A stretch of DNA of 21,247 bases from a virus. Lineage: Duplodnaviria; Heunggongvirae; Uroviricota; Caudoviricetes. The stretch lies in the IMG/VR virus record IMGVR_UViG_2690316149_000020, positions 1 through 21,247 of that record. One strand, given 5' to 3'. A model generated the notes under the pieces. It made no database searches, had not been told where the DNA came from, and saw only the letters and a list, made by a program, of their open reading frames with translations. A program made the translations under genes and the position numbers. Shown piece by piece: positions 12,362-20,239 of this stretch (the first letter of the stretch is position 1; every line of letters starts with the position of its first letter).

Positions 12362-14755
12362 ATGGCTAATTACCGTGATTTGTTAGAGCAGGCTGGCGCA
12401 CGTTACGGTGTGCCAGAAGGGTTGATGACTGCACTGGGTGCCAAGGAGTCTTCTTACAACCCTGCCGCAGTAAGCTCCGCCGGGGCTGTAGGATTGACTC
12501 AGGTCATGCCTGGGACATGGCGTGATATGGGTTATACCGATGAGCAAATGCAAAACCCCGAATATCAGGCTGACGCTGGCGCGCGCTATCTGGCAAAGAT
12601 GTACCAGCAGTTTGGTAACTGGCGTGACGCTCTTCAGGCTTATCACGACGGTCCCGGCAACGTTATGAAGGCAAAGCGTGGTGAATATACGCCAGGACCT
12701 GAAGGCCGCGGTTACGTTGATGATCGCTTTGCTCAATGGGCGGGTGACCCGGTGACAGACTCAACAGTCGAACAGCGCGCCACCTCTGCAAAGGTACATC
12801 CTCAGCAAGACCCTAACAACCCGTTTGCACAACTGGAAGCACAGTCATCCGAACAAGTATCGGCATCAGGCGTGCAGTCAGACCCAAATAATCCATTTGC
12901 TCAGATTGAGCAGCAGGCAGCCAGTCAGCAGCCACCTCAACCCGTAAGTTCTGTCGCACCGAAACCTGTTCAGCAGCAAGGCGGAATAATGTCTGACCTT
13001 GGTAATGGACTTGCTGAAACCGGGCGCGGCTTACTACAGGCAGGAATCAACGTAGCGAACATACCTGCTGAACTCACTGATGCTGTAACAAGCGCGGCGG
13101 CTTGGGCTGGCGGTAAACTCGGCATTGGCGATGGTACATATCAACCAGCACCACGAGTAACAACGCAGGGATTAGAGCGGGACTTTGGCCTTCGGCAAGG
13201 CGCGCTGACTCCACAAACGACAGAGGGAAGGGTATTTGCTGAAGCATTGCCTTACCTCACTCCTGCTGGCGTTGAGAGAGCGGCGGTACAGGCACCAACA
13301 CTTGCTGGTCGAATTGCTCAGGGGGCAACACGACTTCTCGCAGAAAACGCAGTTGGATCACTTGCTGCAAATAGTGCGAAAGATGATGCGGAAGCACTCG
13401 CCACCGATTTAGGCGTTGGTGTACTTGCTGGCGGTGCTATTAACGCTGCTGGACGTGGATTAGGTGCTGCTTATCGTGGCGTTCGTGGTGCTATCGCGCC
13501 AGAAGCGCAGCAGGCCATCAGATTTGCAGAGCGTGAAGGAATTCCTCTGCACACCACAGACCTGTTACAACCAACTTCCCGCGTCGGAAAAATGGCGCAG
13601 ACTACAGCAGAAAATATCCCTCTGGCTGGCACAAGCGGAATGAGAGCAACGCAACAGGAAGCGAGAAGCCAGCTGGTGCAGAGATTTGCCGATAAATTCG
13701 GTGAGTATGATCCAGCGGTTGTTATTGACAGCCTTAAAGCGAAAACATCAGGAATTCGTCGTGCCGCCGGTAATCGACTGGAGCAGGTTCAGAATGCTAT
13801 GGCCGGAGTAAACATTCAGCCTGCGCGAGCAATTCAGCAGATTGATACAGAAATATCTAACCTACAGAAGCTTGGTAAGGTTGCTGATAACGAGACTATT
13901 TCAAAACTTCAGTCATATCGTGATGAGCTTATTCGCAATGCTGGCCCTGATGGTCCTGTAAATCTGGATTTGAAGCAATTAAGCGACCTGCGCAGCCAGT
14001 TCAGAATGGACGTGAAGGGTGAGCGACCAGTGTTACCAAACCGTTCCGATGCTGCAATTCAGCGCGTTTACAAGGCAATGACTGACGATATCAATGGTGC
14101 CATTGGTCAGAATCTTGGCAACGATACTCTCCGTAAATATCAGCAGGCCAATGCCGTCTATGCTGACGAAGCAGCGAAACTCAAGAATACCAGGCTGAAG
14201 AATGTTCTCATGAAAGGCGATCTGACGCCAGAAGTTGTCAACAACATGCTATTCAGCAAGAACAAATCGGAAATTAAGACGTTGTATAACTCAGTTGGTC
14301 GTGTTGGCAGGGCGCAAATGCGCAATGGCATCCTTGGAAAGGCGATGGAGAAATCTGGAGGATCCCCTGACCAGTTCCTTCGGCAGCTTAACATCCTGCA
14401 AAACCAGACTGGCATCACATTTAAGGGGCAGGACGCTGCTTATCTGAAAGGATTAAAAAACTATCTGCAATCCACGCAGCAGGCTGCAAAAGCGGCAGTA
14501 ACAACACCAACAGGGCAGCAAACCATCCCGTTCATTATCGGATATGGGACAGCAATGAACCCGGCGACAACTGGCGCAGCAGTAAGCTATGGACTTCTTA
14601 CTCGCGCCTATGAGAGCGAGCCATTCAGAAATGCAATGCTCCGAATGGCAAACACCCCACGCGGATCAACAGCGTTTGAGAAAGCCATGCAGCAAGCACA
14701 AAAGGCAATTAACGCTATGACGCAGGGGGCTAAGTCTGATGCATTGTCAGAATAG
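12362..14755 (+). CDS. ejection protein in the gp16 position with an N-terminal family-1 lytic transglycosylase (SLT) domain (797 aa)
   Basis: Third E-protein position. N-terminal motifs GAKESSYNP (catalytic Glu-Ser), GLTQVMP and AYHDGPGN follow the SLT pattern. Start is TAAATG, directly after gp20. Confidence 0.75.
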   Translation: MANYRDLLEQAGARYGVPEGLMTALGAKESSYNPAAVSSAGAVGLTQVMPGTWRDMGYTDEQMQNPEYQADAGARYLAKMYQQFGNWRDALQAYHDGPGNVMKAKRGEYTPGPEGRGYVDDRFAQWAGDPVTDSTVEQRATSAKVHPQQDPNNPFAQLEAQSSEQVSASGVQSDPNNPFAQIEQQAASQQPPQPVSSVAPKPVQQQGGIMSDLGNGLAETGRGLLQAGINVANIPAELTDAVTSAAAWAGGKLGIGDGTYQPAPRVTTQGLERDFGLRQGALTPQTTEGRVFAEALPYLTPAGVERAAVQAPTLAGRIAQGATRLLAENAVGSLAANSAKDDAEALATDLGVGVLAGGAINAAGRGLGAAYRGVRGAIAPEAQQAIRFAEREGIPLHTTDLLQPTSRVGKMAQTTAENIPLAGTSGMRATQQEARSQLVQRFADKFGEYDPAVVIDSLKAKTSGIRRAAGNRLEQVQNAMAGVNIQPARAIQQIDTEISNLQKLGKVADNETISKLQSYRDELIRNAGPDGPVNLDLKQLSDLRSQFRMDVKGERPVLPNRSDAAIQRVYKAMTDDINGAIGQNLGNDTLRKYQQANAVYADEAAKLKNTRLKNVLMKGDLTPEVVNNMLFSKNKSEIKTLYNSVGRVGRAQMRNGILGKAMEKSGGSPDQFLRQLNILQNQTGITFKGQDAAYLKGLKNYLQSTQQAAKAAVTTPTGQQTIPFIIGYGTAMNPATTGAAVSYGLLTRAYESEPFRNAMLRMANTPRGSTAFEKAMQQAQKAINAMTQGAKSDALSE

Positions 14756-14845
14756 CTTTTCAAACACCAGGAACGTGCAAAAACCAAATATGTAGAACGC
14801 GAGGTTTATCGTATCTCTCTGCATAGGCGATACCTTTGCTGATTG

Positions 14846-15331
14846 TTATCTGATGTTACTGCTACTGTTGCATGTGACTGTATTTCCAAACCCTGAATTG
14901 CAGTTTGTGTAAGTGTCAACTCGTGTTGGATAGGGTTGAGTTATAACAGGCTGTCTCGCTTTTTGCTCGATCGCTTGCATTGTGTTTACAGCCTGATAAT
15001 TCAATAAAGCCTGCTGGAATGCTTGGCTTTGTGCTATTTGTTGGGCTTGTTCTTGGCTTTGTAATTGAACATAAAGATTCTGAAGCTCAAGTCTTGCCTG
15101 TGCGTCACTTATCTTGCCTTCATCGACACTTTGCCCGAGCATCTTTGCAGCAAGGACATACAGCTTAGGTGTTGGTGCTGATGCCATGCGTGAGTCGTTC
15201 TTCACGCTGGCATCAAGGCAATTAGCCATATCGCTAAGCTTTTGATAGCGTTGTTCGCAACTTGCTTGATAGTCACTTACTTTTGCGCACCCAACCAGCA
15301 GAAGCGGGATAATTAACAGTGATTTTTTCAT
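14846..15331 (-). CDS. predicted lipoprotein (161 aa), function unknown; candidate lysogeny-expressed exclusion or conversion factor
   Basis: Internal ATG at 15329-15331 (minus) is preceded by AAGGAG about 10 nt upstream. Signal peptide MKKSLLIIPLLLVGC has lipobox LVGC, and Ala at +2 predicts outer-membrane sorting. Gln-rich mature region with several Cys. The ORF-track start at 15367 lacks an RBS. Confidence 0.65.
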   Translation of the reverse strand: MKKSLLIIPLLLVGCAKVSDYQASCEQRYQKLSDMANCLDASVKNDSRMASAPTPKLYVLAAKMLGQSVDEGKISDAQARLELQNLYVQLQSQEQAQQIAQSQAFQQALLNYQAVNTMQAIEQKARQPVITQPYPTRVDTYTNCNSGFGNTVTCNSSSNIR

Positions 15332-15401
15332 ATGGTTAACTCTCCTTAGTTTTTCACAGGATATCATGAAGGCAATGCCATTTTAGCCGGAAACTAGATT
15401 T

Positions 15402-15668
15402 CTATGTTCCCTTTTTATTATTGCTATACATGGTCTTAAGCGTTTCAAAAACCATTTTCTTAACCATATCAGATTGTTGTTCTGCTATACGCTCTGCATC
15501 GTCAATGTAAACTGATGCAGAGCTTTGTTTAGCCAATGATTCTTCAATCGCTGCAATTATCTCTGAGTTCAGCGACCTGTTATTCATCTTCGCACGCTGC
15601 TTAATTTTCGCGTGGAGTTCATGCGGAAGTCTCAAGTGAAACTGCGCCTCGTCGTATTTGCTGTACAT
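15402..15668 (-). CDS. mnt: Mnt-like ribbon-helix-helix (Arc/MetJ family) repressor (88 aa)
   Basis: C-terminal segment DDAERIAEQQSDMVKKMVFETLKTMY closely resembles the P22 Mnt tetramerisation region. An RHH core (QFHLRLPHELHAKIKQRAKMNNRSLNSEIIAAIEESL) precedes it. Start taken at the internal ATG (15666-15668) to give an Mnt-like length. Confidence 0.8.
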   Translation of the reverse strand: MYSKYDEAQFHLRLPHELHAKIKQRAKMNNRSLNSEIIAAIEESLAKQSSASVYIDDAERIAEQQSDMVKKMVFETLKTMYSNNKKGT

Positions 15669-15741
15669 CCTTGATGCCTCACCAGTTGGGTGGAATGGCA
15701 TCGTAACTTACTGGATAAATACTCAATAGTACCATTTCGGT

Positions 15742-15764
15742 ATGCAATCACATCATGGTTGCAT
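15742..15764. promoter_or_regulatory. inverted repeat ATGCAA-N11-TTGCAT upstream of the mnt-like gene; candidate operator
   Basis: Perfect 6-bp arms at 15742-15747 and 15759-15764 inside the 131-bp gap between the HNH stop and the mnt start. Its role is not established. Confidence 0.25.
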
Positions 15765-15799
15765 CATATCATTCGTCTGGAGCAATGAAATGTCAGATA

Positions 15800-16339
15800 T
15801 CACCTACCATGATTCTCATGATAACCATAGGTCTTTTCAGCCTCACGCCTTACAGCAATTGCATCATCGAGACTCTTAAAGTATCCGAGATTAATGCGCT
15901 TCCCTGCGTCGCTAATATATGCCACCCACTTTTTATGGGTCTTATGCCATGAAACACCTGCGCACCCAGATGTATTGTTTGTGTATTTAGATTTGTTTTT
16001 TAGATTTTCACCGAGACTAACTAGACGCAGGTTGTCTATTGAATTATTTAACCCATTACCATCTTTATGGTCAATTTGCATTCCTGAAGGGATTTCACCA
16101 TAAAACATTTCCCATATTATCCTATGGGCGGCGTATATTTTATCTTGATACCTGATAATTATATAAGATGTTTTCCTGTTCTTGTCCTTGAATATATGTC
16201 CTGCAGGCTTTTCTTTAGATATATTGAACATTTTGGGTCTTGAAAGATATTGGTCACTCCAGTACAGGAGTCCATCGTCTTTTAATACGAATACTTCGTT
16301 CCAGTTCATGTTAACCACCTTTAAATAAAGTTCACTCAT
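15800..16339 (-). CDS. HNH homing-type endonuclease with C-terminal AP2 DNA-binding domain (179 aa; possibly 169 aa from the ATG at 16309)
   Basis: HNH_3 motif [28 protein letters not shown], followed by an AP2-like segment [45 protein letters not shown]. Visibly AT-rich. The alternative start at 16309 has an AAGGTGG Shine-Dalgarno 5 nt upstream. Confidence 0.8.
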
Positions 16340-16396
16340 TATACAAAAAACATGCTAGCAATGAATATTGCTTGCTTAACATATAGAGAAATTAAA

Positions 16397-18637
16397 ATGA
16401 CAGATTCAATAAATGCCAATGTTGTGGTAAGCATGCCTTCGCAACTCTTCACTATGGCTCGTTCTTTTAAAGCCGTAGCCAATGGAAAAATTTATATCGG
16501 TAAAATTGACACTGACCCGGTAAACCCTGAAAACCAGATTCAGGTTTATGTGGAGAACGAAGACGGCTCTCACGTTCCTGTTTCTCAACCAATAATCATT
16601 AACGCTGCTGGATATCCGGTATATAACGGACAGATTGCCAAATTCGTAACCGTGCAAGGCCATTCTATGGCTGTTTATGATGCGTATGGTGCGCAGCAGT
16701 TCTATTTTTCGAATGTGCTGAAGTATGACCCTGACCAACTCAGGCAAGATCTTGCATCTCAAGGAGGTGTTAATCTGGTAAACGGAGCTATCTCACAGGA
16801 AGATCTTGTTTTGCAGTCGATCACAAAAATTCCAAGTTATGATAATTCTAACGTAGTCCAGGCGTGGCGCGATAGTGTTGCGACCTACGGGTATGTTTAC
16901 TTCTCTAATCATTCAAAAAATCAGATGGTGTACACCGTACCGTCTACAGCTGCTAACGCTTCTTTCCTTGCGAACAGTAAAGTAATCATTGATAAAAATG
17001 TCACCCTGAGATTCGACAGTGATCTGTACTCACTGTTTAAATCGTTGCAGTACGAGGGGGAGGGTACGTTTGAATTTACGCACCTGAACTTTAAAGCAAC
17101 CGGTGGAGAAGTGGATTATCTGGCTAAGCAGGCCATCCTCAACCGAAACCCTATTCGCATGAAGCGAGTGGAATGGTCAGATTGTAAAGTTTATTCCATA
17201 AATGGTGACACGTTCTTCTATGAAGGTGAAGTCACCATATCCTCAGATAGCGCAGCTATCTTCCCCTTAACTACTGACCGTACAACAGGCCTGTTCGCAC
17301 CAATAGATATTGGAGAGCATATTTCTGCACATATTCGTATGGAATCTCAGGCCGCCTCAGAAGTTGGGATTGTTCTGCGATGCTCTGGTGGTTGGATGAT
17401 GTTCTATGGGGCACCAGGTGCTACACAGTGGTCTTATAGACAGAAACCAATTGGTGGTCCAGTAGCAGAAGGAACTCCATTCCCGCTGCCAGGAGGTTTA
17501 CTGTCGTACGCCCCGGGCAAAGCAACCGTTGGCGTATCACTGCAAGGTAAAAACTGGGCGCAGATAACGATGAATGGCGTTGGGATACGTTTGCCCTTTG
17601 ATACTGCTGATGTAGGGGATGTATACGAAGTTGGGTTTGTTGCACTGACCACGGCATCTGGAGGTTCTGCGCGTGTAACTGGATTATGCAGCTACACCTC
17701 TGATAATGGCGTGCACGGTAAGCCTCCACTTAATATCCTTATCCACGGTGATAGTACAGCTGAGGATTTCATTTCCGCGTTCAGCTCGTACATTCCGCAA
17801 TTAATGGATGGAGCGAACGGCCACCGTTCACATAGCATTGTAAACAAGGCAGTTGCCGGACAGACAATGAGGCAACAGTTAGATCTCCTGAAGGCTCAGG
17901 GGCCGGGTGATGCTTACATCGTTATTATGGTTGCCGGAACTAACGAAGGGCAGGCAAACCAAAACGGCGATTATATGGCGTCATTGATAGATGAGTTTGT
18001 CTTATATTGCAATGGCCTTGGTCGTATCCCTGTTTGGGTTGAGCCGTGGATGTGGTATAGCCAGTCATTTATTGGAGGGGCTGGCCAGCCATCTTCTAAC
18101 TACGACGGTGTCGCAGAGTTGCGAGAAGCTGGTAAACGCCAGATGATGAAATATGGCAATAACGTCATTTGTGTAACAACAACTCACCAGCTCCCGGCCC
18201 CATATCCAGAGTATTTCAACACGCAATACGACCCACTTCTGCGTGATGACATTCACCAAAGCCAGTTAGGGTATCGTCTGTATGCGGAAATTATCTGCTC
18301 TGCCATTATCGACTGGTGGTCGCGTGTTGATTACACGCCAAGAGCAGCTGTTCAATGGTGGGCTGGAACAAACGTAACAGTACAGGCACCGTCAAGTTTA
18401 ACTGCCAATTCAATTAATATTAAACTGGCAGCCACTTCATTTGCGAATGGCAATACTGTTCTAACGCTTCCGAGGTGGTGCAGACCAAAAGTAACCAAAA
18501 ATGTCCCTGTACCGTTCACTGCTGATGGCGTTTCATTTGGCATGGCAATGGCCACCATTAATGCTTCAACAGGACAAATATCGATTGAAGGGTCCACCAC
18601 TACATCTCCAACGTTCTACATAGATGCGACATGGTAG
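16397..18637 (+). CDS. tailspike: P22 gp9-type head-binding N-terminal domain fused to a distal region with an SGNH/GDSL hydrolase (esterase) domain (746 aa)
   Basis: Start at the ATG giving [18 protein letters not shown]...[26 protein letters not shown]...VLKYDPDQ, the conserved P22 gp9 N-terminus. The ORF-track start at 16352 adds 15 non-homologous residues. SGNH blocks in order: [27 protein letters not shown]. Confidence 0.85.
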
Positions 18638-18845: not shown

Positions 18846-20003
18846 TCACTCCACCTTCCCATCAAGCCATTCCGCCCACCACTGCATCATTTCTCTGCGC
18901 TTATCTAGATACTGAGCATGGTTGTAAATCCCGCGCACAGATCCGCCGTTGGCATGTGCAAGTTGCACTTCAATAGCGTCAGCAGGCCATTCGTGCTCGT
19001 TCATAATCGTGCTGAATTCATGCCTGAATCCGTGACCGCTTTCCAGACCCTCATAGCCGATTTGTTTAATCACAAGTAGCACCGCGTTCTCGCAGATTGG
19101 CTTCTTCTTATCGTTGCGTCCGGCAAAAACAAACTCTGATACTGGCTTGGTGATTGAGCTTAGCGTAGTAAGAAGTTCAACCACCTGGTCTGACATCGGG
19201 ACCACATGAATTTTTCGACCCTTCATCACACTGGCGTCGATGGTGATAATCCTGTTTTCAAAATCGACGTTCTTCCATAGCATGGAACGAAGTTCTTTCG
19301 TTCTTAGGGCGGTGTAGCGTAAAACTTTAGTCGCAATAAGCGATACGATACTTCCTGAAAATGTTGCCAGTGCTTTGTTGAATGCCGGGATCTGGTCTGC
19401 AGGAAGAAACGGGAAGTTCTTCTTGCGGTATCCTTTCATGGCGTCTGCAAGGTCAGGTGCCGGGTTATATTTAGCCCTTCCGGTGACAATAGCGTAACGG
19501 AAAACCTCGCCGCATCTTCTGCGTGCTTTGTTGGCTCGCTCCATTGCACCGCGATCTTCAAATCTGCGGATTACTTCCAGCAGTTGCATCGGCTCAATAT
19601 CCTGAATCTCAAGACCGCCGATGATGGGTAAAATGTCGTCATCAAACATTTTTGCAAGTTCAGTCGCATACCCTACTGACCAGACTTGCTTCTTGTGCTC
19701 GTACCATTCCTTGTAAATCGCACTAAATGAATTGTTGTTAGACGAAGCCTTTTTCGCCTTTACCGGATCGATGCCAACCGAGATGTCTTTCCTCGCGGTC
19801 CATGCTTTATCCCTTGCTTCCTGCAAAGTCATAAGCGGATATTTTCCGACGGTCAGGATTTTCTCCTTACCGTCAATCTTGTAGCGAAGCTGCCATACCT
19901 TTTTCCCGGATACAGGGACATAAAGGTACAGGCCATTACCATCGAGAAGGCGGTATGGTTTTTCTTTCGGCTTTGCTGCTTCAATCTGCTTAACGGTGAG
20001 CAT
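18846..20003 (-). CDS. intS: tyrosine recombinase / phage integrase, IntS-like (385 aa from the ATG; the ORF-track GTG start at 20039 would give 397 aa)
   Basis: Sits directly beside the 3' end of argW and is transcribed away from it. C-terminal catalytic-domain residues are visible (...HGFRHEF...HANGGSVRGIYNH...). Sequence and context match the recalled argW-associated IntS family. Confidence 0.85.
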   Translation of the reverse strand: MLTVKQIEAAKPKEKPYRLLDGNGLYLYVPVSGKKVWQLRYKIDGKEKILTVGKYPLMTLQEARDKAWTARKDISVGIDPVKAKKASSNNNSFSAIYKEWYEHKKQVWSVGYATELAKMFDDDILPIIGGLEIQDIEPMQLLEVIRRFEDRGAMERANKARRRCGEVFRYAIVTGRAKYNPAPDLADAMKGYRKKNFPFLPADQIPAFNKALATFSGSIVSLIATKVLRYTALRTKELRSMLWKNVDFENRIITIDASVMKGRKIHVVPMSDQVVELLTTLSSITKPVSEFVFAGRNDKKKPICENAVLLVIKQIGYEGLESGHGFRHEFSTIMNEHEWPADAIEVQLAHANGGSVRGIYNHAQYLDKRREMMQWWAEWLDGKVE

Positions 20004-20080
20004 GGGTAAAAATCCGGTGGGTAAAATTATTTTATCCACTTTTTACCCGTCATGGTGTGCGGCTGTCAACGATCTGACGC

Positions 20081-20100
20081 GAACCATGACGAACCGTGAA
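20081..20100. repeat. tandem 10-bp direct repeat GAACCATGAC / GAACCGTGAA in the int-argW spacer; candidate integrase arm-type sites
   Basis: Two adjacent copies with 2 mismatches. An inverted copy (CCGTCATGG, 20047-20055) lies about 30 bp away. Located between the integrase start and the tRNA 3' end, where the att arm is expected. Confidence 0.3.
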
Positions 20101-20164
20101 TCTACGTAAGGCTTGATATTCAGGGGATTTTGCGGACTGCTACGGATGGGAGCGAACTGATAAA

Positions 20165-20239
20165 TGGTGTCCCCTGCAGGAATCGAACCTGCAATTAGCC
20201 CTTAGGAGGGGCTCGTTATATCCATTTAACTAAGAGGAC
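20165..20239 (-). tRNA. argW: tRNA-Arg (anticodon CCU), argW; prophage attachment target
   Basis: The reverse complement reads GTCCTCTTAGTTAAATGGATATAACGAGCCCCTCCTAAGGGCTAATTGCAGGTTCGATTCCTGCAGGGGACACCA. It has a 7-bp acceptor stem, anticodon loop CTCCTAA with CCT, a T-arm GGTTCGATTCC and a 3' CCA. 75 nt. Confidence 0.9.

Follow-up and report, generated by a model that had tools for sequence, protein, structure and literature searches.

The DNA analyzed here, positions 1 to 21,247 of IMG/VR virus record IMGVR_UViG_2690316149_000020 (the window), represents a P22-like (Lederbergvirus) prophage of Escherichia coli, namely its late region together with its right end, and comprises, in this order, terminase, portal, coat and ejection-protein genes, the interval under study, the tailspike gene, an integrase gene and tRNA-Arg(CCT). 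Three minus-strand open reading frames (ORFs) fill positions 14756-16396, exactly between the stop codon of a gp16-like gene (14755) and the ATG of the tailspike gene (16397), and encode a lipoprotein (14846-15331), a homolog of P22 Mnt (15402-15668) and an HNH-AP2 endonuclease (15800-16309). According to the P22 map, the same interval of that phage holds sieA, orf59a, mnt, arc, sar and ant. An initial annotation had described the three genes as one AT-rich island that replaces the sieA-immI region of P22 and lacks arc and ant, and a good part of this description holds. Position, strand and identities of the genes are correct as judged from ORFs, Pfam and phrog_6067; the list of sieA, mnt, arc and ant given for the P22 interval agrees with the map, to which orf59a and sar have to be added; and tblastn of the whole window retrieved homologs of neither Arc and Ant nor SieA and orf59a (best E >= 0.38), while an Rfam scan detected no sar-like RNA. 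The windowed GC content is indeed lowest in this interval, with 39.9% as compared to 49.2% for the whole window and to a minimum of 45.7% among non-overlapping 1641-bp windows elsewhere; by part, it amounts to 36% for the HNH cassette defined below, 40% for mnt and 44% for the lipoprotein gene.

With respect to its location, the interval is a further variant of a hypervariable slot, in which mnt has been kept. This slot, the region between the homologs of gene 16 and gene 9 that is also known from the immI region of P22, has been named "ant moron", and ten types of it were distinguished among sixteen P22-like genomes including the prophage of E. coli B7A (Villafane et al., 2008; PMC2629481). 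Strain B7A was found among the close matches to the window and exhibits the lipoprotein plus Mnt arrangement without the HNH gene. When 5426 complete E. coli genomes were surveyed, any match to the region was obtained for 1163, the lipoprotein gene was present in 186 (about 3%), the HNH cassette in 15 and the whole three-gene arrangement in 3, and many genomes had a shorter version of the region, by 610 bp where HNH is absent or by about 560 bp where the lipoprotein gene is absent. A second survey addressed the architecture of 103 IMG/VR contigs that extend for 2.5 kb or more upstream of the tailspike gene and revealed 25 combinations of parts: 31 contigs have Mnt alone, 19 have the lipoprotein together with Mnt, and 1 has the arrangement of the window. 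The slot contains three unrelated modules, the lipoprotein gene, mnt and the HNH-AP2 cassette, each of which assorts independently.

The HNH-AP2 gene resides on a 610-bp cassette (15805-16414) that is present or absent with identical junctions, the region measuring 2201 bases in the window vs. 1591 in HNH-less genomes. Besides the HNH gene and the promoter region of that gene, the cassette contains a palindrome and a second ribosome-binding site that is followed by six HK620-type tailspike codons; it thereby reaches 18 bases into the tailspike ORF, beyond the end of the interval at 16396. Alignment with HNH-less relatives revealed that it separates codons 5 and 6 of a P22/Sf6-type tailspike start, splitting the putative recognition site ATGWCAGAYATYACC|GCAAATGT; the working start has an extra codon. 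From the same alignment, the DNA on the left (15779-15804, plus strand) was recognized as the remnant of an older tailspike ribosome-binding site with the first five codons, GGAG..ATG TCA GAT ATC ACC. This remnant, ATGTCAGATATCACC, runs straight on as GCAAATGTTGT in cassette-free genomes, and the TGA stop codon of the HNH gene (15800-15802) falls inside its coding part (15790-15804). At the right end, the tailspike gene is entered via the second ribosome-binding site and the start ATGACAGATTCAATAAAT, and it is this HK620-type working start that keeps the gene intact. The idea that the cassette itself supplied the tailspike start was rejected: the start is the native HK620-type one, which is common without HNH (39 of 47 IMG/VR contigs). 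Since the right-hand start is native, the tailspike start region (about -20 to +15) is present on either side of the cassette, in two copies that have diverged. In HNH-less HK620-type starts the spacer before the ATG reads AAATTAA or AAATTAAA (IMG/VR contigs L019-L065). The latter is the form present at the right end of the cassette and would fit cassette loss by recombination between the two start copies, of which some HNH-less HK620-type starts could be the scars.

The left junction was identical in all 17 cassette copies examined, and in each of them the remnant lay to the left, with polymorphisms that track the background. Four kinds of left-hand neighbors were encountered, i.e., mnt of the type present in the window, mnt of the type of prophage Gally together with a P63C-domain gene, mnt-arc-ant, and gp16 directly; the left flank is native to each background. 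On the other side, the cassette was encountered in combination with at least six different receptor-binding domains, and the receptor-binding domain of the window recurs with 100% identity in the cassette-free IMG/VR contigs L024, L036, L037, L041 and L060. HNH homologs with 83, 79, 75, 66 and 64% identity from Enterobacter, Salmonella and metagenomes are all located divergently beside a Head_binding tailspike gene, and beside all of them the working tailspike start is M[TS]DSIT, with an extra Ser codon as compared to M[ST]DIT. The remnant start is kept in two of these diverged lineages (L070 and L074), whereas a homolog with 45% identity sits elsewhere. In IMG/VR, 115 contigs bear the uninterrupted target-like allele, 39 the HNH-less HK620-type start and 8 the cassette. 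Based on this anatomy, the HNH-AP2 cassette is a putative free-standing homing endonuclease gene and not a lysogen-benefit gene, and the HNH genes as a group appear to be a long-lived lineage of homing endonucleases specialized on the 5' end of the P22-like tailspike gene.

The encoded protein comprises 169 amino acids. It matches Pfam HNH_3 with 72.4 bits (cut-off 24.8), and its D80-H81...N102 motif aligns with that of I-HmuI (1U3E) and is invariant in 23 relatives. AP2 scored 22.8-23.9 bits in the protein of the window, under the Pfam cut-off, while 13 of the 23 relatives gave AP2 matches, the best with an E value of 3.5e-12. The AlphaFold model (pLDDT 87) has its best fold matches in I-HmuI (Foldseek top hit 1U3E, probability 0.98) and in plant AP2 domains, its AP2 part forming three strands and a helix that superpose on the AP2 domains of AtERF1 and TEM1 with 1.2-1.7 A. 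Seventeen of the 18 ORFs recovered with the start motif are intact at 169 amino acids, and dN/dS between lineages amounts to 0.03-0.23, with dS saturated.

The HNH gene is preceded by the Shine-Dalgarno sequence AAAGGTGG (16315-16322) and by a putative -10 element, TATAAT, read from the sequence at 16338-16343 on the minus strand, that was not called in a consensus scan because no -35 element passes. The element is kept in lineages with HNH proteins of 64-83% identity, where it takes the form TGATATAAT (extended -10) or TGGTATAAT. Between it and the tailspike ribosome-binding site lies the palindrome GCTAGCAAT-GAAT-ATTGCTTGC (16354-16375), and palindromes of other sequence occupy the same place in four of five other HNH lineages (L069, L070, L072 and L076); these differ around a core like GCAAT..ATTGC. 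I-TevI represses its own gene, and by analogy the palindrome could be an operator, perhaps an autoregulatory one, or else an RNA hairpin of the late transcript. Together, -10 element and palindrome suggest regulated expression of the HNH gene by host RNA polymerase.

The middle gene (15402-15668, minus strand, RefSeq start) encodes a genuine Mnt homolog of 88 amino acids in an incomplete immI circuit. The protein consists of an N-terminal Arc-type ribbon-helix-helix and an Mnt C-terminal domain (Pfam Arc, 54.3 bits; Repressor_Mnt, 43.5 bits; both past their cut-offs) and is 47% identical to P22 Mnt over 76 amino acids (E 2e-28). Neither ant, the classical target of Mnt, nor arc was detected in the window by tblastn. 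A likely operator, CTCAATAG followed by TACC-N5-GGTA, is situated at 15722-15742, a position that matches P22 Omnt. This putative site was compared with annotated P22 Omnt (CTCAATAGGTCCACGGTGGACCT), Gally and VSe13; its arms comprise only 4 bp, and TACC-N5-GGTA recurs beside the same Mnt type in other IMG/VR contigs. The residues at the DNA-contact positions are not those of P22 Mnt, in keeping with a change of operator. In E. coli LF82, deletion of mnt from prophage Gally left macrophage survival unaffected (PMC9928086). A second inverted repeat, ATGCAATCA/TGGTTGCAT, is located at 15742-15764 between the putative operator and the old tailspike start, and no counterpart of it was seen in relatives that share this Mnt type. 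As an aside, P22 mnt (NC_002371) as well as phrog_795 and phrog_2685, the PHROG families that center on it, are labeled "partition protein ATPase", apparently a misannotation that was passed on to further phage records such as those of phage Sf101.

The third gene (14846-15331, minus strand) encodes a lipoprotein precursor of 161 amino acids. Its ORF extends to 15367, while phrog_6067 and RefSeq start at MKKSLL, behind the Shine-Dalgarno sequence AAGGAG (15342-15347). Over its entire length, the protein is covered by a match to phrog_6067 (E 2.5e-109; function unknown), and no Pfam, NCBIfam or PADLOC family was matched. Its N-terminus, MKKSLLIIPLLLVGC|AK, is a signal peptide that is the sole hydrophobic segment and ends in the lipobox L-V-G-C (criterion: [LVI][ASTVI][GAS]C, with a +2 residue other than Asp indicating the outer membrane); Ala at +2 points to a predicted outer-membrane lipoprotein by this sorting rule. 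Among 23 homologs, the lipobox Cys is invariant, and at least 90% of them also retain the Gly. The conserved Cys residues of the alignment are C15, C25, C38, C144 and C154, and four further invariant Cys besides that of the lipobox are as expected for periplasmic disulfides. With dN/dS values of 0.04-0.09, the gene is under strong purifying selection. In the structural model, a Gln-rich linker connects a helical N-terminal domain (pLDDT about 80) to a small C-terminal hairpin, and no informative fold match was obtained.

Complete relatives with 48-99% identity stem from Escherichia, Citrobacter, Serratia, Klebsiella, Cronobacter, Pectobacterium, Yersinia, Morganella, Providencia and Tatumella, and in every Enterobacterales context examined the gene is convergent with the gp16 homolog of a P22-like prophage or phage. 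Lipoprotein genes in the position of sieA were also found in prophages or phages of Morganella, Yersinia, Providencia and Proteus. In the window as well as in Providencia and Proteus, the gene lies 3' of mnt on the same strand, and the gap of only 17 nucleotides between the two in phage Brookers looks like that of an operon. The wider family, collected by a profile search of 1.84 billion representatives, comprises 244 clusters, none with a Pfam domain; a word-indexed search for further relatives mostly returned close relatives again.

Expression data exist for GALLYPH_13 of prophage Gally in E. coli LF82, the product of which is 97% identical to the lipoprotein of the window (RNA-seq; PMC9928086, S1 and S4 Tables). 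In overnight LB, the gene reached 70 normalized counts, 4.5 times the prophage median (PMC9928086, S1 Table). Under the other conditions, log2 values were 7.9-10.3 vs. 3.6-4.1 for the adjacent late gene, i.e., about 20-80 times the level of that neighbor, and the increase in macrophages at 6 h relative to overnight LB corresponded to a log2 fold change of 2.55 (q 4.7e-27) (PMC9928086). Transcription of this near-identical gene from the prophage thus does not depend on the late operon, and the expectation of the initial annotation that genes in this position and orientation are expressed from the prophage is supported for the lipoprotein gene by way of its homolog in LF82 lysogens. In Gally, a further gene, GALLYPH_14 (L001, 2467-2886, plus strand, 139 amino acids), encodes a lipoprotein-like product between the lipoprotein homolog and mnt. 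It is the top-transcribed Gally gene after the c2 repressor gene in four of five LF82 conditions, with log2 values of up to 11, and was not called a moron either owing to the overnight-LB cut-off.

Among the neighboring genes, the gp16-like DNA-ejection protein gene (12362-14755, plus strand, 797 amino acids) forms the left border of the slot. Its product carries an SLT lytic transglycosylase domain at the N-terminus (Pfam, 88.6 bits) and resembles P22 gp16 in the C-terminus only (36% identity); RefSeq names of homologs are DNA transfer protein or lytic transglycosylase domain protein, and the annotated P22 gene 16 product is shorter (609 amino acids). A role of the lipoprotein as an inhibitor of this SLT domain was considered and rejected, as the same lipoprotein adjoins gp16 homologs without an SLT match. 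On the right, the tailspike gene with its HK620-type start (16397-18637, plus strand; Pfam Head_binding, 218 bits) encodes a head-binding domain up to about 16740, followed by the receptor-binding part; identity with relatives is lost past about 345 nucleotides. The receptor-binding part (16742-18637) has a weak GDSL/SGNH esterase match (19.6 bits, under the Pfam cut-off) and no relative among PDB sequences, so that the tailspike may be of the esterase type instead of a beta-helix glycosidase. The minus-strand integrase gene (18846-20039) adjoins the tRNA-Arg(CCT) gene, both within 18846-20239, which marks the prophage end. The gap between tailspike and integrase genes is devoid of ORFs of at least 110 amino acids; in P22, gtrC follows directly after the tailspike gene. 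Consensus scans for promoters and terminators returned fewer matches than shuffled sequence did.

Taken as a whole, the interval is best explained as a homing cassette, a residual mnt gene and a lipoprotein gene brought together in one variable slot, an explanation to which we assign a probability of roughly 0.6. As judged from the insertion anatomy, the HNH-AP2 enzyme would cut tailspike genes with the uninterrupted P22/Sf6-type start described above, and repair of the cut would then copy the cassette into the broken gene, perhaps aided by a phage single-strand annealing recombinase acting on the short left homology. Cassette-bearing genomes and HK620-type starts with their one extra codon would be immune to cutting. 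The mnt gene would be what remains of the immI circuit, and as there is no ant to control, Mnt most likely regulates only itself and a rightward promoter at its operator.

The lipoprotein is the only real exclusion candidate among the three genes. It may exclude superinfecting P22-like phages as a functional analog, not a relative, of SieA, a proposal that we make tentatively and at somewhat less than even odds, because of the exclusive tie of the gene to P22-like phages, the slot that it shares with sieA and its expression from the prophage. SieA acts at the inner membrane, where it obstructs the conduit formed by the ejection proteins (Leavitt et al., 2024; PMC10883804); the lipoprotein would interfere with this conduit, or with its outer-membrane partner, from the periplasmic side. 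The lipoprotein is unrelated to P22 SieA: BLASTP of the lipoprotein against P22 SieA gave no alignment at E <= 100, the SieA motif FxRYPxEAxxFNK is absent from the lipoprotein alignment, and several transmembrane helices in SieA contrast with the single hydrophobic segment of the lipoprotein.

A number of observations weigh against one or the other part of this explanation. With regard to the lipoprotein, it never occurs together with P22-type SieA in the 103 IMG/VR contigs, but this non-overlap is not significant (25 vs. 3 contigs), and SieA of types B and C would have escaped detection; its model is only moderately confident (pLDDT 62), and the one distant family member examined has a non-phage context. 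GALLYPH_13 was not classed as a moron by the LF82 authors (PMC9928086), because 4.5 times background is below their 5-times cut-off; the upstream DNA is not the same in Gally as in the window, and the consensus scan passed no promoter for any of the three genes. The induction in macrophages suits a role in host fitness equally well. As to the cassette, the putative target site and the predicted immunity of HK620-type starts are read from the anatomy, and the HK620-type start could be ancestral instead of an immune allele or a scar of cassette loss. Occupancy is low, with 15 of 1163 E. coli genomes that have a related region and 8 of 162 IMG/VR contigs, which fits weak or rare homing.

The alternative that survives best concerns the lipoprotein, which might be a host-fitness or virulence moron like lambda Bor that alters the envelope or the survival of the host. 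Log2 values of 8-10.3 for the LF82 homolog in cell-culture medium and macrophages vs. 6.1 in LB are in line with such a role, as are distant relatives in non-phage neighborhoods and the finding that no link to any known exclusion protein was detected. On the other hand, every Enterobacterales copy examined occupies the sieA position of a P22-like prophage, which points to a role bound up with this type of phage; induction in macrophages extends over the entire right end of Gally including the tailspike gene and is therefore not gene-specific; and the protein is without similarity to Bor, Iss or TraT. We therefore regard a host-fitness function as unlikely, albeit as the strongest competitor to exclusion of superinfecting phages.

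Slightly less probable still is a two-layer barrier, in which the lipoprotein would represent a new outer-membrane exclusion family replacing SieA in many P22-like prophages of Enterobacterales and an HNH-AP2 enzyme made in the lysogen from its host-type promoter would cut the tailspike starts of incoming relatives; if this were true, the nuclease would also drive the exchange of tailspike and moron modules. A related proposal sees in the HNH-AP2 protein an enzyme that is past homing and now serves as a prophage weapon against superinfecting relatives or as a DNA-binding regulator, its gene being spread by ordinary recombination in the head-binding region. A host-type -10 element that is kept across lineages makes expression in the lysogen possible, the palindrome in the promoter region suggests regulation, I-TevI provides the precedent of a self-repressor, and occupancy of the site by the cassette is low. 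The catalytic residues, however, are invariant and under purifying selection, and a junction that splits the tailspike start precisely is a classic sign of homing. As a weapon that cuts the cassette-free allele would give homing too, the two possibilities overlap, and taken by itself we consider the loss of homing improbable. That the three genes constitute one co-adapted island, gained as a unit in place of sieA-immI and jointly serving the lysogen, is very hard to maintain, for although they are neighboring, AT-rich and all on the minus strand, with no terminator found between them and hence possible read-through from HNH via mnt into the lipoprotein gene, only 3 of the 5426 E. coli genomes and a single one of the 103 IMG/VR contigs have the full set, each part is common alone, and the HNH cassette also adjoins gp16 directly or a complete mnt-arc-ant set.

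For the initial annotation this means that its single island has to be given up, the parts being separate in E. coli (186 lipoprotein genes, 15 HNH cassettes and 3 complete sets among the 5426 genomes), and that replacement of the sieA-immI region is better described as variation within the named ant moron, with mnt retained (Villafane et al., 2008; PMC2629481). Its suggestion of a lysogen-benefit or exclusion module finds a candidate in the lipoprotein, while it fails for the HNH gene as part of a mobile cassette tied to the tailspike start. By its own standard, a conserved, named module would have spoken against the annotation: the slot does have a name, and the lipoprotein gene inside it is uncharacterized. 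In a slot that is itself known, the interval combines a retained Mnt, a putative selfish HNH homing cassette with unusually clear insertion anatomy and an uncharacterized, conserved and expressed lipoprotein.

No part of the P22-like late operon varies more than the slot that precedes the tailspike gene, and a nuclease breaking DNA at the tailspike start would help to explain this variability as well as the swapping of tailspikes, and hence of host range, at the head-binding domain, which is relevant to phage typing and tailspike engineering. The position of the HNH cassette fits the general placing of nuclease genes at boundaries of exchange between phages (PMC10055350). The lipoprotein, conserved in at least five genera besides Escherichia, transcribed in the lysogen of a Crohn's-disease strain and induced in macrophages, is a well-defined candidate for a second P22-like exclusion mechanism or for a lysogenic-conversion factor.

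Comparison with known systems allows these assignments to be set in context. Like the immI region or ant moron of P22, the interval occupies the slot between the homologs of gene 16 and gene 9, varies in content and is traversed in antisense by late transcription; an mnt homolog is present, with an operator-like site in the place that corresponds to that of P22. It differs from P22 immI in that arc, ant, sar, orf59a and sieA are missing and a lipoprotein gene and the HNH cassette are present instead, and its Mnt differs from that of P22 in DNA-contact residues and operator core (TACC-N5-GGTA vs. GTCCAC-G-GTGGAC). P22 SieA shares with the lipoprotein the gene position and orientation, convergent with gene 16, the restriction to P22-like prophages and expression from the prophage, which has been demonstrated for SieA and, in the case of the lipoprotein, for a homolog. 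In contrast, SieA is a polytopic inner-membrane protein, whereas the lipoprotein is predicted to reside in the outer membrane and its exclusion role is putative.

Lipoproteins that block entry or alter the envelope comprise T5 Llp, Cor of phi80, N15 and HK022, Ltp of TP-J34, TraT of the F plasmid and lambda Bor, the latter being an outer-membrane lipoprotein. All of these are small, encoded on mobile elements and expressed from the resident element, and this holds true for the lipoprotein of the window as well, although it lacks sequence, profile or fold similarity to any of them. Of this group, Ltp is cited in the work on SieA (Leavitt et al., 2024; PMC10883804).

The HNH cassette agrees with free-standing HNH homing endonucleases in several respects: an I-HmuI-type HNH motif combined with an AP2 DNA-binding domain as in the HNH-AP2 class, a small stand-alone gene with its own expression signals, and presence or absence at one fixed site that adjoins a conserved gene and coincides with an exchange boundary. 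Free-standing HNH homing endonucleases are exemplified by the Seg and Mob enzymes of T4, and an HNH-AP2 class of homing endonucleases was reportedly described by Magnani and coworkers in 2004. Unlike such genes of virulent phages, the cassette of the window is found in temperate P22-like prophages, and it interrupts the first codons of an essential structural gene, for which it compensates with a second start.

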